A stretch of 61,467 bases of DNA, counting the filler, from Actinomycetota bacterium (lineage in GTDB: Bacteria; Actinomycetota; Acidimicrobiia; Spongiisociales; UBA4744): the NCBI GenBank assembly GCA_013152275.1. It is 6 parts of 6 records of this genome, joined end to end, with 100 filler letters (N's around TTAATTAATTAA, not from the genome) between each part and the next. Parts side by side here need not be neighbours in the genome. Positions count along the whole stretch, not along the records: positions 1 to 21,725 come from JAADGS010000012.1; 5 more parts are not named here. One strand, given 5' to 3'. Positions 3,988 to 21,205 of the stretch are shown here, in pieces. Below the pieces are notes generated by a model. It searched no databases. It saw nothing but the letters and a program-made list of their open reading frames with translations, and was not told where the DNA came from. Position numbers and translations under genes: made by a program. Numbering within the stretch: the stretch's first letter is position 1; each line of letters opens with the position of its first letter.

Positions 3988-4769
3988 GCCGATTCCTCCT
4001 CGACCCGTAGCCCATCGAGGAATGTACCCGGATCCTCGCCCCTATCGATCGCGTCGATCAGGGCGCTCCCCACGATCACCCCGTCGACGTGGCCGGACAG
4101 GGCTTCGACCTGACTCCGGCTGCGAACGCCGAACCCCGCCATCACCGGCAGCGACGTCGCCGACCGAACCCGGTCCAGATACGCGAACTCCTCGACACCC
4201 AGCACGGCCTCGCCGCCGGTGACCGCGGTCCTGGTCACCGCATAGACGAATCCCCTACTCGTCGTGGCAATCCGGGCGAGACGCCCAGAAGATGTGGTGG
4301 GCGTGACGAGCTTGACCAAGGCCAGACCCACGGGCTCCAACACCTCCACGATCGGAGCGTCCTCCTCCAAAGGAAGATCGGGGACGATCAAACCCGACGT
4401 GCGGGTGTCGATCATCGCCGATGCGAGCCGATCGAGACCGAATGCCAGGAAGGGGTTGTAGTAGCCCATCAGCAGATGAGGGGCGCCCAGACTCTGCAGC
4501 CGATCTGCGAGCAGTTCGAAGATCCACTCCAGGGTGACTCCGTTGCCCAGCGCGACGTGACTCGCCTGCTGGATGGTCAGCCCATCGGCCATCGGATCTG
4601 TGAACGGCACCCCGATTTCCACGACGGTGGCCGACTGCGCCACCGCCGCCAGGATGTCCGGGAAGGACTCCAGCGTCGGGTAGCCGGCCGTTATGTAGGC
4701 ACAGATGGCGGGACCCGAAGAACCCCGAATCGCGTCTGAGATCGCCTTGGAACCAACCGACTCAGACAT
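3984..4769 (-). CDS. trpA: Tryptophan synthase alpha
   Basis: [42 protein letters not shown]. Confidence 0.95.
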
Positions 4770-5982
4770 GTGAAACCTCCCCGGTCAGAAGTTGGAGATC
4801 CTTGTCTCCCCGCCCCGAGAGGCCGATGACGATCCGGCCACCCTGGTGATCCCTTGCCCACCGCCGGGCACCGGCAAGGGCGTGCGCCGACTCGAGTGCG
4901 GGAAGAATCCCCTCCACCGCGCTGCACTCGTGCAGCGCATCGAGGGCCTCGTCGTCGGTCACCGACTCGTATCTCGCCCGGCCCAGGTCGCGCAAGAGGG
5001 CATGCTCGGGACCGACCCCCGGGTAGTCGAGGCCGGGAGCGATCGAGTGTGTTTCGAGAATCTGACCGTCGCCATCCTGCAGGAGTGGTGTCATGGCGCC
5101 GTGCAGCACGCCCGGGCTGCCGGCGCCGAGAGTGGCCGAATGCGGATCACCGGCACGACCTCGTCCGGCAGCCTCGATCCCCAGCAACTTCACCTCTGCG
5201 TCACCCACGAAACCGCGGAACAGCCCGATCGCGTTCGATCCGCCTCCCACACAGGCAACCGCCACGCTGGGGAGCCCAACCCCCGAGGCGAGCAGTTGCG
5301 CCCGAGCCTCGTTGCCGATGACCGACTGGAACTCGCGCACCATCCACGGGTAGGGATGTGGACCGACGACCGACCCCAGCAGGTAGTAGGTGCCTTCGGG
5401 GTCGGCAACCCAGGCGCGCATCGCCTCGTCGATCGCCGCCCGCAGCGTCTGGTCGCCCGCCTCGACGAGGATCACCTCTGCGCCGAGCAGTTTCATCCGC
5501 TCCAGATTGGGTTTCTGACGCCGGGCATCGATCACCCCCATGTACACGGTGCAGGGAAGTCCGACCCTGGCGGCGGCGGCGGCGGTGGCGACACCATGCT
5601 GCCCTGCTCCCGTCTCGGCGACGATTCGTTCGACACCCAGTCGACGAGCAATGAGCGCCTGGCCCAATGCGTTGTTGATCTTGTGGGCGCCCGTGTGACA
5701 GAGATCCTCTCTCTTGAGATAGACCTCCGCTCCCCAGCGCGCACCGAGCGACGGGGCGGGGGTCAGCGCCGTGGGACGTCCGATGAAGTCACGCTGTTCC
5801 CTCTCCAACTCGCCAAGAAACGTGGGATCGCCGAGCAGCTCCACCGCGCGACGCTCGAGCCTCTCCAGCACTCCGATCAGCGTCTCGGGAACGAATGCTC
5901 CTCCATACGGTCCGAACCGACCTCGTGGTGGTGGCCTCCCTTCGACCAATCGGTCCAGGAGCGAAGCAGCCGTGTCGGTCAT
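4762..5982 (-). CDS. trpB: Tryptophan synthase beta
   Basis: LKREDLCHTGAHKIN, AETGAGQHG, CVGGGSNA, GLDYPGVGP, LSGRGDKD. Confidence 0.97.
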   Translation of the reverse strand: MTDTAASLLDRLVEGRPPPRGRFGPYGGAFVPETLIGVLERLERRAVELLGDPTFLGELEREQRDFIGRPTALTPAPSLGARWGAEVYLKREDLCHTGAHKINNALGQALIARRLGVERIVAETGAGQHGVATAAAAARVGLPCTVYMGVIDARRQKPNLERMKLLGAEVILVEAGDQTLRAAIDEAMRAWVADPEGTYYLLGSVVGPHPYPWMVREFQSVIGNEARAQLLASGVGLPSVAVACVGGGSNAIGLFRGFVGDAEVKLLGIEAAGRGRAGDPHSATLGAGSPGVLHGAMTPLLQDGDGQILETHSIAPGLDYPGVGPEHALLRDLGRARYESVTDDEALDALHECSAVEGILPALESAHALAGARRWARDHQGGRIVIGLSGRGDKDLQLLTGEVSHV

Positions 5983-6599
5983 GTTCCCACCAATCCTTTC
6001 TCGGTCTCTCGGACCGCTTCAACAAACGCTCGGATCCGGCCCGGGTCCTTCACACCGGGCTCGGACTCCACACCACTACTGACATCGACACCAAAAGGGT
6101 GAACCGTCCTGATGGCCTCGCCGACATTGTCGGGATCGAGACCTCCTGCCAGCGTCACCCGGCCCCGACGGGCGACGCCGAAGGCACGGGTCCAGTCGAC
6201 CGTACGCCCCGCACCGCTGCGGCGCCCCTCGTAGACGAGCCTGCAATCGGTCGAGCTCCCCAGGTACGTGTCGAGTTCGGCCTGGACACGCTCCGACTCC
6301 CGGAACACCGGCAGCAGCCGCCTGCCGTCCAGATCCTCGAGATACGCGTGATCGGCCTGGACGACATCCGCATCGAAGACAGCGAGCGCCCGCGCGAGTT
6401 CGCCGGCCGTCGGACGAAGGAACACGGCCACCCGATCGATGCTCCTTGGAAGCTCTGGTGCAAGTCGGACTGCCTGTTCCGGTGTGACCTGCCGGAGGGA
6501 GGACGCGAACACGAACCCGACCGAGTCGGCGCCGGCTTCTGCCGCCGCGATCGCCCCAGGGAGGTCGGTGATGCCACAGATCTTGACGTGGATTCTCAT
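5979..6599 (-). CDS. trpF: Phosphoribosylanthranilate isomerase
   Basis: VKICGIT, LAGGLDPDNV, GVDVSSGVE...GVKD. Confidence 0.92.
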   Translation of the reverse strand: MRIHVKICGITDLPGAIAAAEAGADSVGFVFASSLRQVTPEQAVRLAPELPRSIDRVAVFLRPTAGELARALAVFDADVVQADHAYLEDLDGRRLLPVFRESERVQAELDTYLGSSTDCRLVYEGRRSGAGRTVDWTRAFGVARRGRVTLAGGLDPDNVGEAIRTVHPFGVDVSSGVESEPGVKDPGRIRAFVEAVRETEKGLVGT

Positions 6600-7420
6600 G
6601 ACACCGACCTCGCCCGTATCGCATTCCGGCCGGCGGCGATCATGGCCCTGGTGGCGACGCCCGGCTCATCCGAGGTCACCAGCGCCGTTCCGACCAGAGC
6701 CAGCCGGTATCCGAGGCGAGCAGCCGCCGCAGCATCTGCAAGAGTTCTCACACCGCTCTCCGCGACCCGGGGAAGGTGCTCGGGAAGCAGCGGGGCCAGG
6801 GATGCCAGACGTGTCGAGTCGACGTCCAGCGTGCTCAGGTTTCGAGAGTTCACCCCGACCAGGACACCGGCGTCGAACACGGCCGAGGCCACCTCGAGGT
6901 CGCTCTCATCGAAGATCTCCACGAGAGCGAACATGCCGAACTCGTCGGCGATCGCCGTCATCTCCTGCAGAAGGGAGGAATCCATCATCTTTGCGATGAG
7001 TAGCACCCCCGATGCGCCGGCCGCTCGAGCCTGGATCACCTGGATCGGATCCACCAGAAAGTCTTTGCAGAGCACCGGCACGTCCACCGCCGAGGCCGCC
7101 GCCTCCAGGTACTCGAGGTGGCCGTCGAAGCGCTCCGGCTCCGTCAAGACCGACACGGCAACGGCGCCGGCCTCTGCATAGGACCGGGCGAGCTTCACCA
7201 CGGCGCCCTGCGGGTCGCCATCTCTGAGAAGCGGACCGTCGGCCGGGCTGGTCAGCTTCGTCTCGGCGATCAGATCGAAGCCATCTGGGGACAGGATCAG
7301 AGGCCGAGCCGGTCGGGCGGACGCGGCGCGCGAGGTCAGCCCCATCACCCCGAAGCGGCGGCGCGCCGCTTCGGCCCGGCTGCGGCTGGAATCGGCCATC
7401 GTGGTGAGGAAGTCAGACAT
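6596..7420 (-). CDS. trpC: Indole-3-glycerol phosphate synthase
   Basis: IAETKLTSP, SVLTEP, LCKDF, GVNSRNL, AESGV. Confidence 0.93.
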   Translation of the reverse strand: MSDFLTTMADSSRSRAEAARRRFGVMGLTSRAASARPARPLILSPDGFDLIAETKLTSPADGPLLRDGDPQGAVVKLARSYAEAGAVAVSVLTEPERFDGHLEYLEAAASAVDVPVLCKDFLVDPIQVIQARAAGASGVLLIAKMMDSSLLQEMTAIADEFGMFALVEIFDESDLEVASAVFDAGVLVGVNSRNLSTLDVDSTRLASLAPLLPEHLPRVAESGVRTLADAAAAARLGYRLALVGTALVTSDEPGVATRAMIAAGRNAIRARSVS

Positions 7421-8423
7421 GGTTCGTCCCGCCGAGACGGCCGAGGAGATCCGACGCCCGCCCGTCGTCGATGGCGGCCGACGCGCTCGCCAGTGCTCGA
7501 ACCGGATCCTGATCGCGCCCGGTCACTCGAAGGGCGAGCGACGCACCCAGAACGATGGCGTCGCGGTGGGGCCCGTCCTCCCCCTCGAGAACCCGGCGGA
7601 GCGCTCCGGCGTTGAATGCGGGGTCGCCGCCTGCCAGGTCCTCGGCCAGGCATCGTCGCAGTCCGAAGTCGGCCGGATCCTCCACCGAGTCGATAACGGA
7701 GCCGGGGGTCACGTCGAACATGGAGTACGGTCCCATCGGGGTGGGCTCGTCCCAGCTCAGCGCACCGTTCACGACAAAAGCCCGTTCGATCGGCATCTCG
7801 GACAGCGTCGCTGCGAGCATCCGGGCGGCGTCGAGACTGTACGCGCCGATCACGGCGAACGGTGGTGTCGCCGGATTGGCCAGCGGTCCGGCGAGATTGA
7901 AGATCGTTCGGACTCCCAGAGCCCTTCGCACCGGTGCGATGGACTTCATCGCAGGGTGATAGGCAGGAGCGAAGAGGAAGGTGAAGCCCGTGTCGCCGAA
8001 CACGCGTGCCGCCTCCTTCGCGTCCCAGGGAACACTCATCCCGAGGGCGGCGAGCACGTCGGCGCTGCCACTCCGGCTCGAGATCGACCGATTCCCGTGT
8101 TTGATCACCGGAACGCCTGCTGCCGCGGCGACCAAGGCCGAACCGGTGGAGAGATTGAGACTCCCCGACCCGTCGCCGCCCGTCCCGACGATGTCGACCG
8201 CCGCAGCGTCGACAGGAATGTCGGGGCGAATGGCGATCTCACGCAGCCCGAGGGCGAACGCCCTGACCTCATCGGGCGTCTCACCTTTGGCTCGAAGGCC
8301 GGCGAGCGCGGCCGCGGCCAGAACCGGGTCCAGATCCGGGTCGGTCAGATGGCCGAGCATCACGCGGGCCTCGCGTTCGGTGAGATCGACGCCGGAGAGC
8401 ACTTTGTCGATGAGCACCCTCAT
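7413..8423 (-). CDS. trpD: Anthranilate phosphoribosyltransferase
   Basis: DIVGTGGDG, KHGNRSISSRSGSADVL, RTIFNLAGPLANP. Confidence 0.95.
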   Translation of the reverse strand: MRVLIDKVLSGVDLTEREARVMLGHLTDPDLDPVLAAAALAGLRAKGETPDEVRAFALGLREIAIRPDIPVDAAAVDIVGTGGDGSGSLNLSTGSALVAAAAGVPVIKHGNRSISSRSGSADVLAALGMSVPWDAKEAARVFGDTGFTFLFAPAYHPAMKSIAPVRRALGVRTIFNLAGPLANPATPPFAVIGAYSLDAARMLAATLSEMPIERAFVVNGALSWDEPTPMGPYSMFDVTPGSVIDSVEDPADFGLRRCLAEDLAGGDPAFNAGALRRVLEGEDGPHRDAIVLGASLALRVTGRDQDPVRALASASAAIDDGRASDLLGRLGGTNHV

Positions 8424-9034
8424 GACGAGACCACCGCGAGAGCCTCGGAGGCGTTCACCGGGTCGAGATCGAGAAAGTTCTGCAAAAGCCGGTCACCCGC
8501 CGGGGTGAGCACGCTCTCCGGGTGGAACTGGACCCCCTCGATCGGCAACTCCCGATGCCGGATGCCCATGATCTCTCCCTCCGACGTGTAGGCCGAGATC
8601 ATCAGCTCGGAAGCAAGACCCTCTTCGGCCACGGCCAGGGAGTGGTATCTCCCCGCCTGCAACGGGTTGGAAAGTCCCTGGAAGATGGTGCGTCTGTCGT
8701 GATACACGGGCGACGCCTTCCCATGCATGAGCGTCTGCGCGGGACCGACCGTGCTTCCGAACACGGCGGCCACCGCCTGATGACCAAGGCACACACCCAG
8801 GATGGGGATCCGCTCGGCGAAGGCCTCGATGATGGCCATCGAGACACCGGCGCCCTCCGGTCGGCCTGGTCCCGGCGAGACGACCACGTGACTGGGCTCG
8901 AGAGCCATCGCGCCGTCCACCGTGATCTGGTCATTGGTCCTGACGCTCACCTCGGCGCCCAAGGTCATGAAGGCTTGAACCAGGTTGTAGGTGAATGAGT
9001 CATAGTTGTCGATCATCAGTACGTGGCGATTCAT
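8420..9034 (-). CDS. trpG: Anthranilate synthase component II (glutamine amidotransferase)
   Basis: IDNYDSFTYNL, SPGPG, GVCLGHQ, RYHSL, QFHPES. Confidence 0.95.
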   Translation of the reverse strand: MNRHVLMIDNYDSFTYNLVQAFMTLGAEVSVRTNDQITVDGAMALEPSHVVVSPGPGRPEGAGVSMAIIEAFAERIPILGVCLGHQAVAAVFGSTVGPAQTLMHGKASPVYHDRRTIFQGLSNPLQAGRYHSLAVAEEGLASELMISAYTSEGEIMGIRHRELPIEGVQFHPESVLTPAGDRLLQNFLDLDPVNASEALAVVSS

Positions 9035-10395
9035 AGGCCCTCCTTTGCCAGTGCGAAGGCTGCTCCGAGCGCTGCCGCTTTGGACAGGACTTCTTCGTAT
9101 TCACGCGCCGGGTCGCTGTCGGCAACGATCCCCGCACCCGCCTGGTAGCTGTATCCGCCCTCTCCGAAGACCATCGTGCGGATCGTGATGGCCTGGTCCA
9201 TCGAGCCGCCATGGCCGAAGTACCCCACGGAACCGGAGTAGAGACCCCGGGACACCGGTTCGAGATCATCGATCAGCTCGATGGCCCGCAGCTTTGGCGC
9301 TCCCGACACCGTTCCTGCAGGGAACGTGGCACGGAAGAGATCCAGAGCGTCGAGGCCGGGACGCATCTCGCCGGTGACTCCGCTCACCATGTGCATGACG
9401 TGGCTGTAGCGCTCGACGGTGCGGTACGGATCGACCTTGACCGACCCGGCCACCGCCGTGCGGCCGAGATCGTTGCGCGCCAGATCCACGAGCATCACAT
9501 GCTCGGCGGCCTCCTTCGGGTCGGCCAGGAGCTGACGCTCCAGGAGCTTGTCGTGCTCGTCGCCGTCGCCTCGCGGGCGAGTGCCGGCGATCGGCCGAAG
9601 CTCGGCTCTCGTGCCGCTGAGTTTGGCGAGTGCCTCCGGGGATGAGCCGACCACTTGGAGATCCTCGAAGTCGACGAAGTACATGTACGGGGACGGATTC
9701 AGCAGGCGGAGTGCCCGATATGCGGCAAAAGGCTCGAGAGATGTCCTGCCCGCGAAGTTGATCGAAAGGACCAGTTGATAGACGTCCCCGGCGGTGATGT
9801 GCCGTTTCACCGTCCCGACGCCCGAGATGAACTGATCCCTCGACATGCTCAGCACCGGCGGCTCGTGGCTTCTCGAGCCGTTGCGCACCTCGACGGGGCC
9901 ACGCAGAATCCTGATCACTTCCCTGCGGAGTGCAGCCCGGTCGGATTCCGCCCCGGCATGGAGAAGTGCGATGCGCCGGGTCAGGTGGTCGAAGACCAGG
10001 ATCGACTCGGTCGCCATATAGGCACCTTCGGGATGCATCGAGAGGTGCGGTGCCGGCGGTAACGGATAGAAACGTCGAACCAGGTCGAACGCGGCGACAC
10101 CGACGAGACCGCCGGAGAAGGGCTGATCCGGCATGAAGGGACCGCACTGCGGTGCTCTCTCGAGCGCGATTCTCAGACCGTCGAGCGGTTCGCGCGACAC
10201 GAGCTCACCGCCGACGCTCACACCCTCCCGGTCGATGGCGACATGCAGGGTCTCACCGAAGCCGATGAACGAATACCGACCTTGATGTCCCCCCTCCACG
10301 CTCTCGAGTAGGTAGCGGGGGCCCAACGGCTCCAACCGCAGATACGCCGAGACCGGTGTGTGCAGGTCGGCTGCGATGTCGAATGGTGTCTGCAT
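9031..10395 (-). CDS. trpE: Anthranilate synthase component I
   Basis: LLES, NPSPYMY, PIAGTRPRG, EHVMLVDLARNDLGR, PAGTVSGAPK. Confidence 0.95.
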   Translation of the reverse strand: MQTPFDIAADLHTPVSAYLRLEPLGPRYLLESVEGGHQGRYSFIGFGETLHVAIDREGVSVGGELVSREPLDGLRIALERAPQCGPFMPDQPFSGGLVGVAAFDLVRRFYPLPPAPHLSMHPEGAYMATESILVFDHLTRRIALLHAGAESDRAALRREVIRILRGPVEVRNGSRSHEPPVLSMSRDQFISGVGTVKRHITAGDVYQLVLSINFAGRTSLEPFAAYRALRLLNPSPYMYFVDFEDLQVVGSSPEALAKLSGTRAELRPIAGTRPRGDGDEHDKLLERQLLADPKEAAEHVMLVDLARNDLGRTAVAGSVKVDPYRTVERYSHVMHMVSGVTGEMRPGLDALDLFRATFPAGTVSGAPKLRAIELIDDLEPVSRGLYSGSVGYFGHGGSMDQAITIRTMVFGEGGYSYQAGAGIVADSDPAREYEEVLSKAAALGAAFALAKEGL

Positions 10396-10437
10396 GTCTC
10401 CTCAATCCTTTGCGATGTGAGGAGTGTTTGCTGCATC

Positions 10438-10470
10438 AGGAAACCCACCTCACGTTCCTCCGAGGTGGGC
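10438..10470 (-). terminator. trp attenuator terminator hairpin
   Basis: Minus strand GCCCACCTC-GGAGGAACGT-GAGGTGGG-TTTCCT, between the leader peptide and trpE. Confidence 0.75.
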
Positions 10471-10511
10471 TGGTGTGTTCTGTGTTCAGACAGGTTTGGT
10501 ATCGCCACCTC

Positions 10512-10565
10512 TTATCGGGACGACCACCACCACTGCTGGACTGAACAGGTGTTTCTCATACTCAT
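10512..10565 (-). CDS. trpL: trp operon leader peptide MSMRNTCSVQQWWWSSR
   Basis: Three tandem TGG codons in a 17-aa ORF about 120 nt upstream of trpE, followed by terminator/antiterminator sequences; alternative start at 10559. Confidence 0.88.
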   Translation of the reverse strand: MSMRNTCSVQQWWWSSR

Positions 10566-10575
10566 TGAAGCCGTA

Positions 10576-10604
10576 ACCGTACTGGGCGATCGGGCCGGGA
10601 GCAA
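10576..10604 (-). promoter_or_regulatory. Putative sigma70-type promoter of trp operon
   Basis: TTGCTC-17 nt-TACGGT, ending 10 nt before the trpL ATG. Confidence 0.55.
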
Positions 10605-10709
10605 GCGGTCGCATGGCTTCAGGCGATGCCGGGGGTTATTTCATCCGCATCGGCACGGCTGATGGCCCCCTCGCCGAGGGGCATCGAGGGGCTTGCGATC
10701 GAAGTCGGG

Positions 10710-13451
10710 TCATCCGGTGTTGCGAAGACCGGCTGCGATACCGTTGACCGTCAAGAGCAGTGCTCGTTGCAGAAGTGGGTCGTCGCGATCTGTGTTCCGT
10801 GAACGCGCGAGCAGGTTGACCTGGAGGTGGTGGAGGGGTTGCAGATAGGTGTCTCTGACCCGCAGCGTACGTTGAAGGACGGGGTTGGCCTCGAGCAGTG
10901 TCGGTTCGTTCGTGATGGCGAGAATCTCGTCGATCGTCCGGTGGTATTCCGCTTCGATCGTGTCGAAGAGGTGGCGATGGTCTGCCGGGACGAGAGCCTG
11001 CACGTACCGTTGAGCGATCCCAAGATCCGTCTTGGCGAGCGTCATCTCGACATTTGATATGAAGGTTCGAAAGAAGGACCAATGTGCAAACATCTCGCTG
11101 ATCGCCGCCCCATGTCCCGCACGACGCGCGGCAGCGAGTCCCGACCCAACCCCAAACCATCCTGGGATGATCTGACGCGACTGTGTCCAACCGAACACCC
11201 AGGGGATCGCCCTGAGATCGTCGAGCGACCCGGCGCCATTGGGACGCCGCGACGGACGTGAACCGATATTGAGCGCCCCCAACTCGTCGACCGGCGTCGC
11301 AGAAAGGAAATACTCGACGAGATCCGGACTCTCGATCAGATCTCGATAGGCCGCATACGCAGCATCGCTCACCACATCCATCGTGTCATGCCATCGAACG
11401 AGCTGCTCCTCGGGTTGACGAGGCGACTGATGGAGCAGCGACGCTTCGATGACCGCCGACAGCGCCAGCTCGAGGTTTCGGGCGGCAAGCTCGGGAAGGC
11501 CGTACTTGTCGGCGATCACCTCACCTTGTTCGGTGATCTTGATCGGCCCGTCGACGGTCCCGTACGGCTGGGCGAGGATCGCTTCGTGCGTCGGTCCACC
11601 ACCCCGACCGATGGTGCCGCCGCGTCCGTGGAACAACCGCAGCACGACACCATGTTTTCTGGCGATGTCCCGCAGCCGTTGCTGCGCCTTGTAGATCTCC
11701 CACTGCGATGTGGTGATGCCACCGGCCTTGTTCGAATCCGAATAACCGAGCATCACCTCTTGAATGTCGCCACGAAGGCGAACGATCTCACGGTATGGCT
11801 TGACGCTCAGGAGTCGGTCGAACAGGTCGCCTGCCATCTGGAGCTCTTCGGTGGTTTCGAGTAGCGGCACGAAACCGAGCTCGGCAACATGTCCCGGGAC
11901 GTCGATGAGTCCCACTTCACGAGCCAAGACGGCGGCCGCAAGGACATCGTCGACGTCCCGTGTCATCGAGATGATGTAGCTCTCGATGAGGTCGGAGCCG
12001 TACCGGTCCTTGACATGCCTGATCGTTCGGAACACGTCGAGGGTGGCGGCCGTCTCCTCACTCACCGCCGCCGCGGTCGTGGTCAACGGCCGCCGACCAT
12101 CCAACTCCACGGCCAGTTTCTCGGCTCGACCGGCGGCATCGAGCACCCGATAGGGAGTACCGAGACGGTCGAACAACTCGGCGATCGCCTCATGGTGTTT
12201 CGCTGCGAGCTGCCGGATGTCCATCGTCGCCAGATGAAACCCGAACGTCGCCGCCGTACGTGTCACCCGGGCGACCATGCCTGCAGCGACCAGACCACCA
12301 CGGTTCGCGACCAGCGACCGGTGGAGCACGGCGAGTTCCTCGAGGACTTCACCGATAGTGGAATACCCCCTGCCAGGAACATGGCGGGAACCCGATGTCA
12401 TACGCTCACGGGTGTTGACGAGCCGCTGATGGATGTAGGCCAACTTGAGCCGATACGGCTCCTCCGCGTTGAGGACACCGAACCGCTCATGCACTCGCGG
12501 CAGCAGCGACCGGTCCACCTCGAGGCTCGCACGCAACTCGTCGCTCACATCCCGGATCCTCGACGACGTCGACAGATCCGTGGCCAGCGCCTCAACTGCA
12601 CCGATCAGGTTACGCATCGCGTGGTCATGCTGAGCGGCCAATACGTCACCCGTGACTGCCGCCGTCACGAATGGGTTCCCATCCCGGTCGCCGCCCACCC
12701 ACGTGCCGAATCGGATCGGCGTGCGATCGATCGCGACGTCGATCCCCAGACGCCTCATCTCGGTGGCGTACCCGTCGAGGACCTCCGGCACAGCCCCCCG
12801 GAACAGCTCGTCGAGGTAGTAGATCACCGACGCTGCTTCGTCTCTGGGATCTGGACGATCCCGGCGAAGCTCGTCCGTCTGCCAGATGAGGTCGATCAGC
12901 TCGGCGAGACGCCGGTCGATTCGACGCTTGTCGGCCTCCGTGGCCCGCGTATCGAGACGCTCGTCGAGCAGTTTGGCGACGGTGTTGAGCTTGGTGAGGA
13001 TCGAACGTCGCGACGCCTCGGTCGGGTGAGCCGTGAACACGGGACGCAGTTCGAGCCGTTCCAGCATCCGCTCGACGTCGGCTCTGTCCAACCCGGCAGC
13101 GTCGACCTGGTCGACCGTGCTCTCCAACCAGCCGCGCTGCCGTCGGGTGCGAGCCGCCAGCTCGTCCAACCGGTGTGTCTGCTCGGCAACGTTGGCGAGA
13201 TAGAAATAGGCGGTGAATGCCCTCACCAGCGTGCTCAGGGTCGCCAGATCAAGACCGCCGAGCAGCACATCGAGAGCGTCGTCGCGCCCGGCCGTCTCCG
13301 TGTCCCGCAGTCTCCTGGTGATCGCCCGCACGTCCTCGACGAGGTCGAGCAGATCAGGGCCCTCCTGACGCACCAGCGAATCCCCCAGCTGGTTCCCCAG
13401 CCGCCGGATATCCGCCCGCAACGCCGCATCTCGCTTGTGAAGGTCCACCAC
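10710..13451 (-). CDS. ppc: Phosphoenolpyruvate carboxylase
   Basis: VFTAHPTE, WVGGDRDGNP, VMLGYSDSNK, FHGRGG, RAIPWVF, AGLRNTG C-terminus; start trimmed to GTG (VVDLHKRD). Confidence 0.95.
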   Translation of the reverse strand: MVDLHKRDAALRADIRRLGNQLGDSLVRQEGPDLLDLVEDVRAITRRLRDTETAGRDDALDVLLGGLDLATLSTLVRAFTAYFYLANVAEQTHRLDELAARTRRQRGWLESTVDQVDAAGLDRADVERMLERLELRPVFTAHPTEASRRSILTKLNTVAKLLDERLDTRATEADKRRIDRRLAELIDLIWQTDELRRDRPDPRDEAASVIYYLDELFRGAVPEVLDGYATEMRRLGIDVAIDRTPIRFGTWVGGDRDGNPFVTAAVTGDVLAAQHDHAMRNLIGAVEALATDLSTSSRIRDVSDELRASLEVDRSLLPRVHERFGVLNAEEPYRLKLAYIHQRLVNTRERMTSGSRHVPGRGYSTIGEVLEELAVLHRSLVANRGGLVAAGMVARVTRTAATFGFHLATMDIRQLAAKHHEAIAELFDRLGTPYRVLDAAGRAEKLAVELDGRRPLTTTAAAVSEETAATLDVFRTIRHVKDRYGSDLIESYIISMTRDVDDVLAAAVLAREVGLIDVPGHVAELGFVPLLETTEELQMAGDLFDRLLSVKPYREIVRLRGDIQEVMLGYSDSNKAGGITTSQWEIYKAQQRLRDIARKHGVVLRLFHGRGGTIGRGGGPTHEAILAQPYGTVDGPIKITEQGEVIADKYGLPELAARNLELALSAVIEASLLHQSPRQPEEQLVRWHDTMDVVSDAAYAAYRDLIESPDLVEYFLSATPVDELGALNIGSRPSRRPNGAGSLDDLRAIPWVFGWTQSRQIIPGWFGVGSGLAAARRAGHGAAISEMFAHWSFFRTFISNVEMTLAKTDLGIAQRYVQALVPADHRHLFDTIEAEYHRTIDEILAITNEPTLLEANPVLQRTLRVRDTYLQPLHHLQVNLLARSRNTDRDDPLLQRALLLTVNGIAAGLRNTG

Positions 13452-13533
13452 GCGAGCGTACCAACGGCCCGCCACGGCGCCCAGTCCACCGCCTCGGCTT
13501 CGCACTCGCGTTCCGCGAGGAGGCCGGCGGTGC

Positions 13534-15102
13534 CTATTCCTGCCGTCGCTCGCCGGCAACGCTGCTCGAGCGGCCGATCGGTAGATCGATGGCGAACGCC
13601 CAACTCGCCTTGGCCCGTTCGAATCGGAGCGAACCTCCCGCCGCGACCGTCAGAGTGTGGGCATAGGTGATGCCGAGTCGGTCGCCCATCTCCGGTGGCA
13701 TCACCTCGGAATGGGCGAGAAGGCTCCACGCTTGGCCGAGGGGTGTCCTCGAGTCGATATCGGGTCCCGGACCCAGATCACAGACGCGCAGGCAGACGCC
13801 GGCGGGGATCGATCGAACCGAGATGGTGACGGGCGGTGTGCCGTATCTTCGGCTGTTCTCGATGAGTTCGTAGAGGGCGATCGTGAGTGGAAGGGGATCA
13901 CAACGGACCACCAGACTTCGCTCCCCTTCCACCGTCACCAGCGACTCCAGACCGGGTCTGGCACCAAGCAGGTAGCTGTCGATCAGCTCTCCGATCGTGA
14001 CCGCCACCACGGACCGCTGAGGTCCTCGCTGCAGCCGTAACACCGAGCTGATCCGGTCCAAGAGTTGCTCGATCCGAGCGCCTGCATCCCGAATCGCCAC
14101 AGCGGCCTCCCGCAGGTCTTCGCCCTCCAACTCCCCCTTGGCGATCAACTCCGAATACCCCACGATCGGCGACAATGGGGTCCTGAACTGGTGATTGGCC
14201 GACTCCATGAACCGCCGGTGCTGCTCACCCGCCAACACCTGACTGGTTACGTCCTCGGCGTAGACCATCAGCAGGGCCGGATCGTTCATCTCCCGATGCA
14301 ACGACGCTCCGATCCGCAGGAACGTCTCCCTGCCGGTGGTCGAAGGCACCACGTAGAGCGATGGCGGCCCCGGCTCGCCTGAGGTCACCATTCCCGCGAG
14401 CACCTCTCCCAATCGCTGGCCGGGGACCGCCGACCCGCCAAAGCGAGCGATCGTCGTATGTTCGGTGTCGGCGAGTCCGAAACGCCGGGCCGTCTCGTTG
14501 GCGAACAGGCAACGCAGCGAGTCTCCGTCGTACAAGGCGAAACCGATCGGGGCCTCCTCGGCGATCCCGGCCGCAAGCGTCCTCGCCCGAGTCGACTCCC
14601 TCTGCCAGTACTCGGACAAGGCCCGCCCCCAGATCAGCAACCCGATGAATGCCAGGAACACACCCAACCGAACCACGCTGGTGACGGTCACATCGTTGGC
14701 GCCCGCGATCACACCCAGATACACCACCACGGCGGCAACCGCCATCCAGATGATCCGTCGAAGCGGGCTGGTCACCGCCTCCCAAACAACCACGATCAGC
14801 ATTGCGAAGAAGAACGGGCTCTCGGTGCCCCCGTCCAGCGCAACGATCACACCCACCAGCACCAGCGAGCCCACACCACGGATCAGATACACGCCGCCTT
14901 TACGAACCAACGCGATCCGATCGGCGAGAGTGTCCAACCCCGTTCGCCAGAGCAGCAGAATGCCGGCAACGATCAGCGTACCGACCGGGTGCAGCACATC
15001 ACCAAACATGGCGAGCACAAGCACATGGACCGTGACAATCGGTCCAACCGGGTCAAAACTCTCAAACCACGTCTGCCATCGTGGAATTCGGCTTTCGATC
15101 AA
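13534..15102 (-). CDS. Membrane sensor histidine kinase (multi-TM, PAS-like, HisKA, divergent HATPase)
   Basis: About 5-6 hydrophobic helices; PAS-like EEAPIGFALYD...FANETARR...EDVT; H-box ANHQFRTPL; N-box LIENSRRYG; G1 DLGPG. Confidence 0.8.
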   Translation of the reverse strand: MIESRIPRWQTWFESFDPVGPIVTVHVLVLAMFGDVLHPVGTLIVAGILLLWRTGLDTLADRIALVRKGGVYLIRGVGSLVLVGVIVALDGGTESPFFFAMLIVVVWEAVTSPLRRIIWMAVAAVVVYLGVIAGANDVTVTSVVRLGVFLAFIGLLIWGRALSEYWQRESTRARTLAAGIAEEAPIGFALYDGDSLRCLFANETARRFGLADTEHTTIARFGGSAVPGQRLGEVLAGMVTSGEPGPPSLYVVPSTTGRETFLRIGASLHREMNDPALLMVYAEDVTSQVLAGEQHRRFMESANHQFRTPLSPIVGYSELIAKGELEGEDLREAAVAIRDAGARIEQLLDRISSVLRLQRGPQRSVVAVTIGELIDSYLLGARPGLESLVTVEGERSLVVRCDPLPLTIALYELIENSRRYGTPPVTISVRSIPAGVCLRVCDLGPGPDIDSRTPLGQAWSLLAHSEVMPPEMGDRLGITYAHTLTVAAGGSLRFERAKASWAFAIDLPIGRSSSVAGERRQE

Positions 15103-15233
15103 GGGAATACCACCATATGGACTCTTCCTTATTCCATCTGATCCACTGCACCCCCATTACATCTTGGATGAGCGCCCTGCCCACGCCACCCGGCCACCTC
15201 GCGGCTCACGCCGGCCACCCCGTCATCACCACA

Positions 15234-15264
15234 GCCCAATCCGACAGTTCCCGCCGGATTGGGC
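15234..15264. terminator. Perfect 10-bp stem hairpin, possible terminator or processing site
   Basis: GCCCAATCCG...CGGATTGGGC; no U-tract. Confidence 0.4.
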
Positions 15265-15502
15265 CGGGTGATCCGAATCGACCCATTGCGTCTGTCGACC
15301 TTTCACAGCCGATAGCAGCAGCCGTCAAGCACCCCCCACGGTCCTGGGTCGACCTGAGATTGCGAGCGATATGAAGTACCAGGCACCAGCATCACTCAAC
15401 AGACTTCCTGGCTCGAGCCGAACGCTGCGTGGCCGGATCACCCGGAGACGGCGGAGAGCTGCCGACTCGCTTTCTCAGTTCACGGTGTTACCGGATGTCG
15501 GA

Positions 15503-15595
15503 TCAGCTCATGTCGCTGATCGACGCCAAAGCGGGAAGAGCGGTGACGAGGACGCTTGCCAGCGTCAGAACGAGCACGATGATACGACGGCGCAT
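15503..15595 (-). CDS. 30-aa secreted peptide precursor MRRRIIVLVLTLASVLVTALPALA|SISDMS
   Basis: Strong SD AAGGAGGT 6 nt before ATG; basic n-region, hydrophobic h-region and P-A-L-A signal peptidase I site; below the ORF-track length cutoff. Confidence 0.75.
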   Translation of the reverse strand: MRRRIIVLVLTLASVLVTALPALASISDMS

Positions 15596-15634
15596 TGAGG
15601 GACCTCCTTGAGCCCGACTGCTGTTTCAGCGTCG

Positions 15635-15668
15635 AGTATGCGGAAAGCCCGTCTCTCAGATATCTCAC
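15635..15668 (-). promoter_or_regulatory. Putative SARP-type promoter of the peptide gene
   Basis: Heptamer direct repeat GTGAGAT/GAGAGAC with 11-bp period, then 10 nt, then CATACT (-10-like). Confidence 0.4.
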
Positions 15669-15697
15669 GCGCCGGTGCCGGCCGACCAAACCTTCCG

Positions 15698-18600
15698 TCA
15701 TGATGCGCGCGGCTTTTGCCCCCGAGTGGCGAGGCGGTGGCCTGCGTTGCGCAGCGCGACCAGGTCACGGCCCACCGTTGAAGCGCTTACGTTCAACACT
15801 CCGGCCAACTGGTCGATCGAGGGCACGGCACCTTGGTCACCGGCCTCGGTCATCAGCCGCCACAGCCGTCTACGGCGGCGGTCGATGGGAGAAGACACCT
15901 GTTCGTCCTCGGGGTCCGTGACCGTCCAGGTAACTTGCCGCAATTCGTCGTCGGCCAGAGCCCGCCCGATCGGCGTCCCGGCTGCCGGGAGCAGCACCTC
16001 GACGGTGTGTGGGGAATACTGGTTCCACGCCGCCACGATCTCCCGGTGCTCGGCAACCCGCTCCAAGGCGCCCTCACGATCTTCGGCCGGAAGTCCTTGA
16101 AGAGTTGCATTGAGCAGCCGATATGCCTCTGCTGCAGCACGACGGGCCTCTTGACGTTGTCCGGCAGCCCTTGCGGCAACGGCATGACGGTGATGGATCA
16201 AGTGGACACGCTCAACCCCCGGCACGAGCTGCTCGACCGCTTGACGAGTGACGGCAAAGGCTTCCTGCACATGCCCGCCGGCCAGTAGCGTGGCCCCGCG
16301 AATCGAGAGCAGCTCAACTGCCAGGGACACGAGTCCTGTCTCGACGCATATCCGGTCCGCCCGATCGAGAGCGACAAGAGCATCCTGGTGATTGCCTGTG
16401 GCCAAGTGAAGGAGGGCAAGAGAGCGGAGGTGTTGGCCTTCGAGGAAGCGGTTGCCGGTCCCGGTGAGGGTCAGGTAGCTCTCTTCGAGCAGCCGCTCGG
16501 CCTCGTCGGGTCGGTCCTGGAGGAGAGCAACCCCCGCCAGGACCTCCATGCACTGTGCTTGGCGGGCCCGATCCCCGATATTCAGGAAATGGGTCATCGC
16601 CCTCTGAGCGTCTGCCGTGGCCCGTCGGCAGTCACCGAGGAGGCTCTGGCGGACCGAGGCGGCGTTGACGCGGACCATCGCCTCCCCCCGAAGGTCGCCG
16701 AGTTCGGCGAAGATGCGCGCCGCTTGCTCATACCCGGAGAGGGCGCCGGCCACCTGGCCGAGGAAGTAGTGGAGGTTGCTCTGATTCACCCAATTGACTC
16801 CCTCCCCGTGCCGGTAGCCGATCTTCTGGCAGATCTCGATTGCCCGCCCGTAATGGACGAGAGACCCGTCGGTGTCTCCCAGCTGGCGAAGCGCCCGCGC
16901 CTTGCTGCCGAACACCTCTGCCTCTCCGCGCAGATCGCTCGACTTTTCGAAAAGAGCGAGCGCACGTTCCAGGTGAGGGAGTGCCTCGGTGGACCGTTGC
17001 ACTTCCACCAACGTGCTGCCCAACTCGATGTGAGCTTCGGCTCGTCTCTGGTCGTCGCCCCTCGCCGCCACCACTGCCGCCTCGAGCTGGGATACCGCCT
17101 CCAGGGGATGCCCCGACCAACGTTGGCACGTGCCAAGCGCCACGAGAGCCGCCGCCAACGCGCCTCGATCTCCCCGACGACGCTCCGCATCCACCGACTG
17201 TCGCGCCGACTTCTCGGCCTCGGCGAAGCGCCCGGTGTGAGCGAGAAGCCAGGCCCTGCGTCGCTCGAGGTCGCCTCGCAGCGAAGGCCTCTCCTCGACC
17301 AGTCTCGCCATCCCCTCGATCACTTCGGCCTGTTCGTTTCGACGCCCCAGCACACTGAGAACGGTCTCGAGATGTCCCGCCAACCGATATCGGTCCCCCG
17401 GCAACCACTTCGCGTACGCGGCCGCTTCCTGGGCCGCCTGAAAGTGCTGCCGGGCAGTCGCAAAGGCGTGGAGCTCTTCGGCCCGAATACCTGCTTCGAG
17501 CAGGAAGTGGGCGGCCCGCTCGGGGATCCCACCCTCCCAATAGTGGTAGCCGATGGCGTCGACGTCTTCTGCGTCGATGTCGACCAGCGCCGCCGCCACA
17601 CGCCGGTGCAGCTCCACCCTGTGGCCCTCGTCGAGGCTCTCGTAGACGACCTCGCGCACCAGATCGTGGGATACCCGGTAGCGGCTGTCGCCTTCCTCTC
17701 GGATGAGACCACGATGTATGAGATCGTCCATGGCGTCCAAGACGGACGCCCGTGGGAGTCCGACAACAGCTGCCAGCATCGCCAGATCGACCGCGCCGCC
17801 GCACACGGCGGCGACCTTGAACACGGCATGGGCGTGCTCACCGAGCAAGGATGTGCGGGCGTCGATCACCGACCTGACCCGAGGAGCGACTGCAATGGTC
17901 CGACCGGCGAGTTCCCGCTCGAGTACTCCGCCCGGATCACCGCCGACTTCGAACAGACCCTGATCGCGCAGAGCCAACAGAGTCTCCAACGTGAAGAGAA
18001 CATTTCCTCCGGTCCGACGATGCAGGCGGGCCGCCACCATCGGTTCCATACTGGTCAAACCCAGAATGGCCTTGACCATGTCGCCCAATTCGAACACCGA
18101 CAAGGGAGACAGCACAACCCGACCAAGACCGGCGACACGATCCAGGTCACGAAGCACATCCCACACTTCCGGATCGCCCCGACCCTCTTCGCTTCGATAG
18201 AGCAGCAACAAGAGGATTCGGGACTCGGCAAGCCGGGGCCCGAGCTGGGTGAGGACACCAAGCGTGTCCTGGTCGGCCCAGTGCACGTCGTCGACGATCA
18301 CGAGGTGAGGAGCGATCCTGCCCAACGCGCCAAGTGTCAACACGAGCGCCTCCTGCATCCGTGTCGACTCCTCCGCCGGGCGAAGCGGAGTAGACGTGGA
18401 TGGCAGGACGTTCCGCTTACCGAGACGGGGAGCGAGCCGCATCGCCTCGGTCAACCAGACCGGTTTGAGTTGCTCAGAGAGCTGTTCGGCCCGCAATGGA
18501 CTGATCGACTCCAACACCTCGACGAGCGGGCCGAACGGACGCAACGTCCCCTGCACGCAGGTTCCCCAGCTGACCTCGAATCCACGCCAGCGGGCAGCGT

Positions 18601-19555
18601 CCGCCGCCTCCAGCGCCAGCCGGGTCTTACCTATTCCGGGTTCCCCTTCCACCAGCACAACTCCACCCGGCCCGGCCAACACCCGTTCCAAGTGGCCGAT
18701 GAGGCTACGCCGTTCCTCTTCCCGACCCACAAAGGGGATGCCGGACCGGCTCCCCAGAAGCGTCGCGCGCTCTTCCCCCTGCAACGGCCGGATTGCAGCA
18801 CGCCGCTGCCGGAGGATGCGCCGGTACAGCTCGACGGTGGGCTCGGAAGGCTCCGTGCCCAACTCCTCGGCCAACACCGACCGGCACCGTTCAAACTGCT
18901 GGACGGCGTCGCTGGTCCGCCCCAGCAAGAAGCAGAGTCGCATGACCTCCTGGTGCGCCTCTTCTCTGAGCGGATCGTGGTGGGTGAGTCGCCGCGCGTG
19001 CGCCAACGCCTCCTCATAGGCGCCCTGGGCCTTGGTCACCTCGACCAGACGGCTGAGAGCCACCAGGTAGCGTTGGCGGTAGTGATCCTGTTCGACCACC
19101 ACCCAGTTGTCGAAGAACCCGGCCAGGAAGTCGCCTCGATACAGCTCCACACAGGCACGCAGGGCGGCAGCGTCGCCGGCGCGCCCGAGCTGGGTGTCAC
19201 GGCGGGAGATCTCCAGCGAATCGAAGAGGTGATCGAACTCCTCGACATCCAACCAGTACGGTGCGGTGGTGTCGAACGCGAGAGTGTCTGCGGTGGTCGC
19301 CAAATGTGAAGCCGAACCATCGCTTACCGTATCCTGAATCTGCCACAGGGTATGGCTGAGGCGGCGTCGAGCCCGCCCCTCGGGAAGGTCGGGCCAGAAG
19401 GAACCGGCCAGCAAGTCACGCTGCAGGGGCCGCCCTCGATGCATCACCAGGTGAGCGAACAGCGACCGTCCGACACGCGATGCGATGGGCGGCAACGCCT
19501 TGCCGGCACGTTCCATGAAGAAGCCCCCGAACAGGTACACCCGCAGTGGCTCCAT
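15698..19555 (-). CDS. AfsR/SARP-like large regulator: wHTH + BTAD + P-loop ATPase + TPR repeats + C-terminal DUF1670-like HTH
   Basis: LRVYLFGGF; LYRGDFL; DPLREEAHQEVMR; FVGRE; Walker A GEPGIGKT; Walker B VIVDDVHWAD; TGGNVLF; long TPR-like region; C-terminus RLMTEAGDQG...LAGVLNVSASTVGRDL...G..LATRG. Start trimmed from 19972. Confidence 0.88.
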   Translation of the reverse strand: MEPLRVYLFGGFFMERAGKALPPIASRVGRSLFAHLVMHRGRPLQRDLLAGSFWPDLPEGRARRRLSHTLWQIQDTVSDGSASHLATTADTLAFDTTAPYWLDVEEFDHLFDSLEISRRDTQLGRAGDAAALRACVELYRGDFLAGFFDNWVVVEQDHYRQRYLVALSRLVEVTKAQGAYEEALAHARRLTHHDPLREEAHQEVMRLCFLLGRTSDAVQQFERCRSVLAEELGTEPSEPTVELYRRILRQRRAAIRPLQGEERATLLGSRSGIPFVGREEERRSLIGHLERVLAGPGGVVLVEGEPGIGKTRLALEAADAARWRGFEVSWGTCVQGTLRPFGPLVEVLESISPLRAEQLSEQLKPVWLTEAMRLAPRLGKRNVLPSTSTPLRPAEESTRMQEALVLTLGALGRIAPHLVIVDDVHWADQDTLGVLTQLGPRLAESRILLLLLYRSEEGRGDPEVWDVLRDLDRVAGLGRVVLSPLSVFELGDMVKAILGLTSMEPMVAARLHRRTGGNVLFTLETLLALRDQGLFEVGGDPGGVLERELAGRTIAVAPRVRSVIDARTSLLGEHAHAVFKVAAVCGGAVDLAMLAAVVGLPRASVLDAMDDLIHRGLIREEGDSRYRVSHDLVREVVYESLDEGHRVELHRRVAAALVDIDAEDVDAIGYHYWEGGIPERAAHFLLEAGIRAEELHAFATARQHFQAAQEAAAYAKWLPGDRYRLAGHLETVLSVLGRRNEQAEVIEGMARLVEERPSLRGDLERRRAWLLAHTGRFAEAEKSARQSVDAERRRGDRGALAAALVALGTCQRWSGHPLEAVSQLEAAVVAARGDDQRRAEAHIELGSTLVEVQRSTEALPHLERALALFEKSSDLRGEAEVFGSKARALRQLGDTDGSLVHYGRAIEICQKIGYRHGEGVNWVNQSNLHYFLGQVAGALSGYEQAARIFAELGDLRGEAMVRVNAASVRQSLLGDCRRATADAQRAMTHFLNIGDRARQAQCMEVLAGVALLQDRPDEAERLLEESYLTLTGTGNRFLEGQHLRSLALLHLATGNHQDALVALDRADRICVETGLVSLAVELLSIRGATLLAGGHVQEAFAVTRQAVEQLVPGVERVHLIHHRHAVAARAAGQRQEARRAAAEAYRLLNATLQGLPAEDREGALERVAEHREIVAAWNQYSPHTVEVLLPAAGTPIGRALADDELRQVTWTVTDPEDEQVSSPIDRRRRRLWRLMTEAGDQGAVPSIDQLAGVLNVSASTVGRDLVALRNAGHRLATRGQKPRAS

Positions 19556-20005: not shown

Positions 20006-21205
20006 CTACCCGCGAAACGTGTCTGCCCACCGTTGCCAGGCTTGAAGCCATGTTCGTTCGAGTGCGCCGACCGTCTCCGAGTGCGCCCGGAAGGTGGCCA
20101 AGTCATTGATGCCAGGGGTGTCACCGGTGACTGGCGGTGGTCGTTGCTTGGCTTCCCATAGCCGCTGCCACGCACGCTGGGTCGATCCGCTGGATACCTC
20201 TCGCCCCAGAACCCAGTAGGCGAGGGTCTCATCGATGGCCGCTTGTCTCAATGCCACGTCGCTGAACCACTCTGTCTTCTCGGCGAGAGAAGCGAGTTGG
20301 TTCACCATGGCGGTACCCGACTGTCTCGCTCGCTCTCGAGGTTGACGGGCAAGCTGCATCTGGGCTCGGATGGAGGCCTCCCACAGACGACCCATGTCGA
20401 CCACGGGGTGGCGACGCGGGCTGGGCGGTCGCCCCCGGCGAAGCTCGCCGGTCAGCCAGGCTCCCTCGACAAGTACTGCCTCCACAAGTGCCCGGGGCGC
20501 CTCCAGCCCCACGGCCGGTGGTAGGTCCAGCTCCTCGGGTCGCTCATAGGGGTGGGCGGCGGCCAGAGCGGACAGCAACTCCGCCCGCCCTTCCCAATAG
20601 GGGACCAGATCCTCGACTCTTCGCAACGCTATCCCCGCACTCGACACACCCCGCCCGACGACCGTGACCGTCACAGAACGCCGCTCCGTGTCCGATCGGA
20701 CCTCGGCCTGCAACGCCCACAGCACCCCCTCCCTCCGCAGAAGCGCATCCAGCTCCACGCCATCAACGATCAGCACCACCACTGCCACCTCATCGGCCCG
20801 CTCAGGATCGGGTTCGTTCACCCCGGCGTGGTCGAACAACCGGTCTCGCTCATCGGCCAACACCTCTGCCGGCCCCGGGGGCTCTCCGACCGAAGTCGTT
20901 ACACCGACCCATGGGCCCCCGGACGCGACCGCATCGCCATACACGAGCGAGATCGACACCCATTCCCCATCCGCCTGGTGGGAGTCTGCCAGCGCTCTGG
21001 CGGCCGGCTCCGGTGTCACCAGCTCGAACACGGGGAACACAGGCAACGCGAACAGCTCGTCACGCTGTCGGCGCATCCGCTGTCGAGCCTGTTCGACGAA
21101 CGCCGCATGTTCGGGATCCGGCGGCAACGACTCCATCACCACAGCCTGCCACGTTCCCCAGCACCGCACAACGACGATCCACCACGGCCGGCCCTCCTCA
21201 GACAC
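20006..21205 (-). CDS. Hypothetical protein (399 aa)
   Basis: Long ORF with protein-like composition; no recognised motif; start uncertain. Confidence 0.55.
   Translation of the reverse strand: MSEEGRPWWIVVVRCWGTWQAVVMESLPPDPEHAAFVEQARQRMRRQRDELFALPVFPVFELVTPEPAARALADSHQADGEWVSISLVYGDAVASGGPWVGVTTSVGEPPGPAEVLADERDRLFDHAGVNEPDPERADEVAVVVLIVDGVELDALLRREGVLWALQAEVRSDTERRSVTVTVVGRGVSSAGIALRRVEDLVPYWEGRAELLSALAAAHPYERPEELDLPPAVGLEAPRALVEAVLVEGAWLTGELRRGRPPSPRRHPVVDMGRLWEASIRAQMQLARQPRERARQSGTAMVNQLASLAEKTEWFSDVALRQAAIDETLAYWVLGREVSSGSTQRAWQRLWEAKQRPPPVTGDTPGINDLATFRAHSETVGALERTWLQAWQRWADTFRG

Follow-up and report, generated by a model that had tools for sequence, protein, structure and literature searches.

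Why does a gene of only 30 codons lie between a giant transcriptional regulator and a membrane histidine kinase? The locus that raises this question is part of a 61,467-nucleotide stretch of DNA, here called the window, from an Actinomycetota bacterium of the class Acidimicrobiia (GenBank assembly GCA_013152275.1). An earlier reading of the DNA alone (the original prediction) had proposed a peptide-communication module, and the features on which it was built all hold: the 30-codon open reading frame (ORF) with its Shine-Dalgarno sequence, the 102-nt spacing from the stop codon of a 1285-residue regulator gene, and a kinase gene starting 400 nt past the propeptide stop. Comparison with homologous loci indicates that regulator, promoter and propeptide gene are a real and conserved module, and that this module likely serves signalling. 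We think it probable that it forms a self-addressed circuit, in which the peptide is exported, cut after Ala24, re-imported and bound by the TPR sensor of a STAND-type activator. In the direction of transcription, the locus contains the following parts:

15698-19555, minus strand: AfsR-like regulator gene, 1285 residues (Pfam, PDB sequence matches, AlphaFold2 model, Foldseek, motif conservation)
15690-15700, minus strand: upstream operator box TGACGGAAGGT, overlapping the regulator stop codon (family form TGA(G)CG-nn-AGGT)
15650-15667, minus strand: direct repeat TGAGATA-n4-AGAGACG with an 11-bp period, a SARP-box-like site
15635-15640, minus strand: candidate -10 hexamer CATACT, 9 nt past the second repeat copy
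15602-15609, minus strand: Shine-Dalgarno sequence AAGGAGGT of the propeptide gene, recognized from sequence
15503-15595, minus strand: 30-codon propeptide gene, with signal peptide codons 1-24 (15595-15524) and the predicted mature hexapeptide SISDMS (15523-15506)
13534-15102, minus strand: gene for a 522-residue membrane histidine kinase (Pfam; start codon uncertain)

The locus is on contig C54 of its genome. A search of the genome's contigs for related loci returned one locus only, the propeptide gene is single-copy, and the regulator is the only BTAD gene found. Using the C-terminal 600 residues of the regulator as query (E 1e-20 for the order), we obtained matches in 97 of 401 genomes of the order, spanning 11 of its 12 families, and in 12 of 401 genomes of the phylum; a local query found the regulator in 25 of 86 genomes of family f28, which belongs to another class and in which two genomes that each consist of a single contig (G450, G465) carry both regulator and propeptide gene. 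Close relatives of the regulator carry the source labels Acidimicrobiia or Actinomycetota. A plasmid collection yielded 38 records with weak TPR matches, none spanning 80% of the 600-residue query. We fetched loci where the match reached the regulator C-terminus, leaving out matches that ended at contig ends. The resulting 273 loci contained 123 distinct regulator 3' ends, 122 of which had at least 330 nt downstream.

Behind 113 of these 122 regulator homologues lies a propeptide-like gene. Of these genes, 110 passed an automatic filter for signal-peptide ORFs of 26-40 residues with alanine required at position -1, and three were recognized by eye (L092, L241, L271). The filter also passed behind 23 of 1955 long ORFs of the organism's own genome (1.2%), the present locus among the 23, so the proposed pairing of regulator and propeptide stands well above background. 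The locus counts nevertheless overstate independence, because the genomes are kin. Nine loci are exceptions: L049, L056 and L098 have neither peptide nor operator, L253 has the operator only, L068 and L153-L155 are leaderless (described below), and in L085 the peptide gene is broken after 14 codons, just past the operator, by what is likely the end of an insertion sequence. On the contig of L113, we observed a 28-codon ORF (L113:1726-1812) with a Shine-Dalgarno sequence, a basic N-terminus and a hydrophobic middle. It sits 225 nt past an operator-like site and 15 kb upstream of the regulator, and is possibly a second kind of propeptide.

In the window, the propeptide consists of 24 signal-peptide-like residues ending in P-A-L-A, followed by SISDMS. 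Across the 110 filtered loci, it is 29-34 residues long, and its ORF begins 9-291 nt past the regulator stop. The cleavage-site pattern is P at -4 in 98 loci, A at -3 in 101 and, as imposed by the filter, A at -1 in all 110; from this pattern we predict cleavage after Ala24. The tail past the predicted cut is six residues long in 76 loci, seven in 33 and eight in one. As the original prediction had anticipated for the flanks of regulator homologues, these short tails are highly variable: the 110 loci encode 75 different ones, among them SISDMS, AVVNIR, ILRPGH, NGDFHR, GTAYMI and GIKNLGL. Tail classes track the regulator tree, and genomes with two regulators have two different tails, each behind its own regulator. 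In 31 disjoint pairs with 50-97% regulator identity, the ratio of replacement to synonymous changes per site (pN/pS) was 0.25 in the tail versus 0.37 in the signal core, and identity was 0.82 versus 0.71 (Wilcoxon p 0.03), a pattern of purifying selection on the propeptide gene.

An ORF this short could also be what truncation has left of a longer secreted protein, or could have arisen by chance. We give this practically no weight: homologous loci show no long secreted protein, the stop codon lies 6-8 residues past the cleavage site in 110 of 110 loci, synonymous changes outnumber replacements, and the background rate is low. A relic in particular is excluded by the pairing with the regulator, the fixed tail length and purifying selection.

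We next consider what controls the propeptide gene. Between it and the regulator gene we found a SARP-type promoter, which the original prediction had missed along with the C-terminal helix-turn-helix (HTH) of the regulator. The family form of the repeat, TGAGAYA-n4-(G/A)GAGAYR with an 11-bp period, is present by match score in 71 of 87 peptide loci, two of them doubtful. Nine nt past it stands a hexamer of the form xA-xxx-T, with the A in 66 and the T in 61 of the 71. The upstream box accompanies the repeat in 58 of the 71 loci, in 51 of them 32-36 nt and in six 24-25 nt before it, and the two spacings differ by about one helical turn. In the second promoter units of L053, L058 and L066, the box recurs far from any stop codon. 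SARP targets are described as direct repeats spaced by 11 or 22 bp whose 3' copy stands 8 bp away from the -10 element; AfsR activates afsS through such a promoter, with CACTGT as its -10 (PMC10936776, the part available). The 11-bp period here and the 9 nt to the hexamer, as the repeat is drawn here, agree with this description. Scanning for the sigma-70 consensus revealed no promoter ahead of the peptide gene, which is the outcome expected of an activator-dependent promoter.

The peptide promoter also appears to be the regulator's only target site in its genome. With a position weight matrix that included this site itself, it was the one repeat above shuffled background (38.2 bits; next 18.7). 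The scan gave no sign of a wider regulon in this genome (13 sites above 12 bits versus 18 and 15 in two shuffles), and the upstream box alone occurs there twice, at chance level. No second repeat lies past the peptide gene in any of the 110 loci, and in pattern searches of 72, 46 and 80 genomes, those with a regulator mostly had a single site, located at the peptide gene. Because a SARP-type promoter precedes the propeptide gene and is the only such site in the genome, this peptide gene is most likely driven by the regulator it accompanies, in the manner of afsS by AfsR and comS by ComR. We observed extra two-part operators away from the regulator in L141, L116, L143, L142 and L209; the genes behind them encode, in this order, a patatin-like phospholipase, a HEAT-repeat protein, a Nal1-like protease and an EAL protein, the fifth gene being cut off at a contig end.

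Two evolutionary events suggest which part of the regulator reads which part of the promoter. In the group with GDFHR tails, the N-terminal recognition helix is altered and so is the repeat (CACGG, same period); the group with AVVN tails has a distinct SVRT motif in the C-terminal HTH and a different promoter. On these grounds, the repeat would be read by the SARP module and the upstream box by the C-terminal HTH. Genomes of family f11 (for example L010/L081, L012/L088, L009/L074) carry two paralogous systems with unlike tails; their AVVN copy stands out by a different promoter and an altered C-terminal HTH, which is what avoidance of cross-talk would lead one to expect.

The architecture of the regulator places a potential peptide sensor behind this DNA-binding module. 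Pfam assigns BTAD to residues 102-248 (E 5e-25), AAA_16 to 274-448, TPR repeats (TPR_12 and others) and a DUF1670/DeoR-like HTH to 1197-1280. PF00486 was not matched in the N-terminus, and PF00931 (NB-ARC) was not matched at E 0.01, AAA_16 standing in its place. In a PDB sequence search of residues 1-302, the best matches were AfsR and EmbR, over residues 15-259. The NTPase has Walker A at 304-311 and Walker B at 419-428, and the Walker G-K is kept in 66-68 of 68 regulators. His630 of an HD-like motif is present in 67 of 68, with D or E directly after it in 52; we infer by position, not alignment, that it is equivalent to AfsR H603. The TPR solenoid spans about 691-1180. An AlphaFold2 model of residues 286-1285 (pLDDT 91, pTM 0.72) shows a STAND domain, a winged helix, a long TPR solenoid and a C-terminal beta-hairpin/HTH unit. 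Foldseek ranked 6mfv, a STAND-TPR protein, first, followed by many LGN-peptide complexes; among the Foldseek matches listed there was no RRNPP receptor, and the Pfam result contained no RRNPP family. Two near-invariant asparagines, Asn924 and Asn964, lie on successive groove-lining TPR A helices. Asparagine ladders hold peptide backbones in LGN and RRNPP proteins.

The original prediction had named two possible sensors, this TPR domain and the downstream kinase. In the kinase, HisKA scores above the Pfam cut-off and HATPase_c just below it (22.4 vs 26.4 bits), and about five hydrophobic segments are joined by short loops. Reception of the peptide by this membrane kinase, as in Agr and Com systems, would suit its several membrane segments and the recurrence of co-oriented HisKA kinases behind the peptide: 34 of 113 loci have one (33 of the 104 that extend for at least 900 nt), 17 of 89 in the order and 17 of 24 in distant families. 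However, 79 loci have no such kinase, and the present one occurs in only four (its own, two of the genus and L031), the other 30 having other kinases, often soluble. A FastTree phylogeny, in which deep nodes are weak, places the downstream kinases in at least four groups, with unrelated kinases from the organism's own genome lying between them. In 12 loci of the same tail group, the kinase is a soluble protein of ~340 residues, 20-29% identical to the present kinase over the core only and from another branch; L032 and L033, two of these 12, have the identical tail SISDMS. Conversely, five homologues of the present kinase were found in four other genomes, and the 1.5 kb upstream of each holds neither such a peptide gene nor the repeat. 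No response regulator gene adjoins the kinase at the locus. We therefore rate reception by the membrane kinase as very unlikely.

Because different kinases have been recruited repeatedly, many of them without a membrane sensor, their position looks like an output slot on the activated transcript rather than that of a receptor. Their recurrence, in at least four groups, makes the kinase part of the module as its probable output, accessory and swappable on present comparisons; of the two proposed sensors, the kinase is probably not the receptor and the TPR domain is the more probable one. In a scan that covered 65 of 105 candidates, other lineages had at this position a gene of the PAS, EAL or LacI kind, or a housekeeping gene running convergently. 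We found no strong hairpin in the 110 nt past the present peptide stop (z +1.6), the four membrane-kinase loci ranging from +0.6 to +1.6, and the kinase is probably co-transcribed with the peptide.

Is the tail or the signal half the active part? Small membrane proteins such as MgrB and SafA act as regulators, and the uncleaved 30-mer or its signal half might likewise tune the kinase or another membrane partner; its positive N-terminus, single hydrophobic helix, own regulated promoter and frequent kinase neighbour would fit this. The strong P-A-x-A cleavage consensus, a tail conserved better than the helix, and the many neighbouring kinases without a membrane segment all speak against it, as do leaderless variants that drop the helix and keep the tail, and we consider such a role quite unlikely. 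In L068, the operator and a Shine-Dalgarno sequence are followed only by M-LRPGHGPS, the tail of its clade without a signal peptide, for which decay is the other reading. In L153-L155 of family f8 (L153:250-970), a duplicated operator precedes ORFs of 13-21 codons that lack a hydrophobic core; their final residues are GVVSIK, GVVSIR, GRVSIK, GVVGIQ or a doubled SGSVIIR, with a threefold array in L153. The TPR tree places the L153 and L154 regulators as sisters to the SVVN group. That leaderless tails are kept and multiplied fits a cytoplasmic receptor. We also observed that the leaderless ORFs of L153-L155 are separated by a repeated element, GCTCCGCTAGGGC, and that the first operator there drives a stretch without a clear ORF, which may be RNA.

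Some tail groups have structured elements further downstream. In the NWG group (L081, L086-L089, L095, L097, L202), a two-hairpin element 115 nt past the peptide stop has a consensus of -46 kcal/mol and 32 pairs, one with a two-sided change, and is conserved beyond the needs of a terminator; five loci searched against Rfam, L081 among them, gave no match. The PGH group (L048, L062, L063, L068, L069, L071, L268, L272, L273) has a conserved multi-hairpin 3' element 170 nt past the peptide stop, with C-rich loops and a strong terminal hairpin, and GDFHR loci have another 3' element (z about -4). The PGH and GDFHR transcripts are candidates for a dual function; the RNA alignment, in which one row (L065) carries wrong coordinates, is a lead only. 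No structured RNA was found behind the peptide gene of the window (z +1.6).

Together these parts outline the self-addressed circuit. Bound to the 11-bp repeat through its SARP module and to the upstream box through its C-terminal HTH, the regulator would activate the peptide transcript. The propeptide would be exported by Sec and SISDMS freed by signal peptidase I. The hexapeptide would then re-enter cells, probably through an Opp/Dpp-type importer; the genome has three genes for family-5 peptide-binding proteins (SBP_bac_5). SISDMS would bind the concave TPR groove and relieve STAND autoinhibition, closing a positive feedback as in ComR-comS. Two sources, in the parts available, provide background: STAND autoinhibition is lifted through a TPR sensor (10.64898/2026.09.02.748808), and ComR-XIP binds its box in the comS promoter after Opp import (PMC6703854). 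We lean toward such relief of autoinhibition over an inhibitory loop of the Phr or AimP kind. Output genes would share the transcript or lie under a copy of the operator; here this would be the histidine kinase, whereas in other lineages the role would fall to other kinases, to proteins of the EAL or PAS type, or to a structured 3' RNA.

Binding of the propeptide by the TPR domain has weak support from structure prediction. Cofolding of TPR region 631-1182 with the whole propeptide scored 0.43, against 0.01 for the best control (runs of 0.14, 0.71 and 0.43; contacts agreeing to 87% or more, with a partner pLDDT of 44 or higher). Of 157 solved pairs, 116 reached the mark applied, as did 2 of 215 mismatched pairs; at scores up to 0.60 there were only 18 of these solved pairs together with both mismatched ones.

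Several observations weigh against the self-addressed circuit. The cofolding cannot separate the tail from the hydrophobic helix, because it gives no interface. Columns specific to tail classes are found in TPR A helices (11 of 135) more than in B helices (3 of 136), but they are nearly as frequent elsewhere, with 16 of 252 in the SARP module and 19 of 416 in the NTPase region, so that the covariation of tail and TPR foreseen by the original prediction is not demonstrated beyond kinship. The intact regulators of L049 and L056, and the partial one of L098, lack peptide and operator, and no relocated copy was found in those incomplete genomes. Sixteen of 87 peptide loci lack the canonical repeat, and the AVVN group lost it without any change in the N-terminal helix. 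Genes for family-5 binding proteins are a common trait, present in 11 of 14 control genomes, and in many lineages neither a co-oriented gene behind the peptide nor a second operator was found that would supply the loop with an output.

Some of these points would suit an arrangement like that of AfsR and AfsS, in which the regulator senses another cue and the exported hexapeptide is an output that a different receptor reads, be it in the same cell or in another. No operator but the peptide promoter was found in the genome, which is exactly the afsR-afsS layout, covariation of tail and TPR is not demonstrated beyond kinship, and some regulators have no peptide. Against this, no second gene is conserved with the pair, two-regulator genomes keep two tails, each with its own regulator, leaderless tails persist beside intact regulators, and there is the predicted, if weak, TPR-propeptide binding. 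We regard this arrangement as unlikely, though worth keeping in view, and favor the self-addressed circuit.

More broadly, the module may represent a family of NLR-type activators that encode their own diffusible ligand, with a peptide code of at least 75 words in two classes of Actinomycetota, plug-in outputs and leaderless variants as private intracellular versions; we would put this just short of an even chance. The plug-in slot would have taken up kinases at least four times, EAL and PAS proteins, and lineage-specific structured 3' RNAs. If the circuit holds, then as far as our literature search reaches, the peptide would be the first natural ligand of any AfsR-like sensor, and Actinomycetota would gain their first case of RRNPP-like communication. 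The reviews, in the parts available, describe small-molecule signals and no report for Acidimicrobiia (PMC10075063, PMC4748050). A six-residue synthetic peptide makes it testable what activates AfsR-like NLR-type regulators, whose effectors are unknown according to the available part of 10.64898/2026.09.02.748808; peptide pheromones with cytoplasmic receptors in Actinomycetota become testable too. The dozens of natural receptor-tail pairs with one common promoter motif would then offer a ready set of orthogonal switches. Such a module could be overlooked because its receptor exceeds the 250-500 residue window of RRNPP_detector and its ORF is too short for gene callers.

We also noted features around the module. 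Within the gap between peptide and kinase genes, the segment at 15261-15407 has 73-77% matches on four other contigs and is probably a small dispersed repeat, and a 10-bp perfect hairpin lies at 15234-15264. Upstream of the regulator, a 399-residue ORF (20006-21205, minus strand) has no Pfam match; the fetched loci contain it in a single further genome, which is of the same genus. The segment at 4762-13559 (minus strand), directly downstream of the kinase, holds a phosphoenolpyruvate carboxylase gene and then a tryptophan biosynthesis operon, whose genes we take from sequence motifs to be trpE, G, D, C, F and B; these genes are not kept as neighbours of the module elsewhere.

How does the module compare with known systems? 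With Agr and ComCDE, the present locus shares a small peptide gene followed by a membrane histidine kinase; it differs in its Sec-type leader, in having no dedicated exporter or response regulator adjoining, and in a kinase that is not conserved with the peptide. With AfsR-afsS of Streptomyces, it shares the SARP module, P-loop STAND domain and TPRs. AfsS is a cytoplasmic regulator, whereas the small gene here encodes a predicted cleavable, secreted propeptide. The regulator has 1285 residues against 993 in AfsR, matches AAA_16 instead of NB-ARC and, unlike AfsR-afsS, adds a C-terminal HTH and an upstream box. Also common to both are a small gene directly behind the regulator, whose weak -10 has a repeat of 11-bp period close upstream (PMC10936776), and the conserved His of the HD-like motif (10.64898/2026.09.02.748808; both sources available in part). 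Of the features by which the latter source defines AfsR-like large SARPs, the regulator has the winged HTH with BTAD and the HD motif with TPRs but not NB-ARC; Foldseek recovers a STAND fold. The natural effector of AfsR is given there as unknown, and the available main text does not contain the word 'peptide'. The regulator is AfsR-like but not an AfsR orthologue.

The closest parallel in working is with RRNPP systems (ComR-ComS, PlcR-PapR) and arbitrium (AimR-AimP-aimX), which place a cytoplasmic TPR regulator beside a small exported propeptide with a short variable C-terminal tail, the arrangement predicted here. In arbitrium, an output gene or RNA (aimX) lies behind the peptide, as is probable for the present module. 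Like comS, the propeptide gene has the operator in its own promoter (PMC6703854, the part available). The receptor here is 3-5 times longer than RRNPP receptors, carries an ATP switch and a SARP activator module, and comes from another phylum. Measured against the RRNPP description in the available part of PMC10075063, the module has a propeptide of 10-100 residues, a TPR receptor and adjacent genes; its 1285-residue receptor lies outside the 250-500 range. By hand-made rules, the propeptide shows the n/h/c pattern and P-A-x-A of a putative Sec signal. A full-text literature search, whose coverage excluded most subscription papers, returned no description of such a regulator-propeptide pair, a term search of the available part of PMC9765709 gave no matches, and PMC4748050, in its available part, had no quorum-sensing report for Acidimicrobiia as of 2016. 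The module is thus apparently undescribed, as the original prediction had supposed, and its suggestion of RRNPP-like logic on a SARP-STAND scaffold is supported by conservation: the module is RRNPP-like in its working, on a scaffold that is not that of an RRNPP member.

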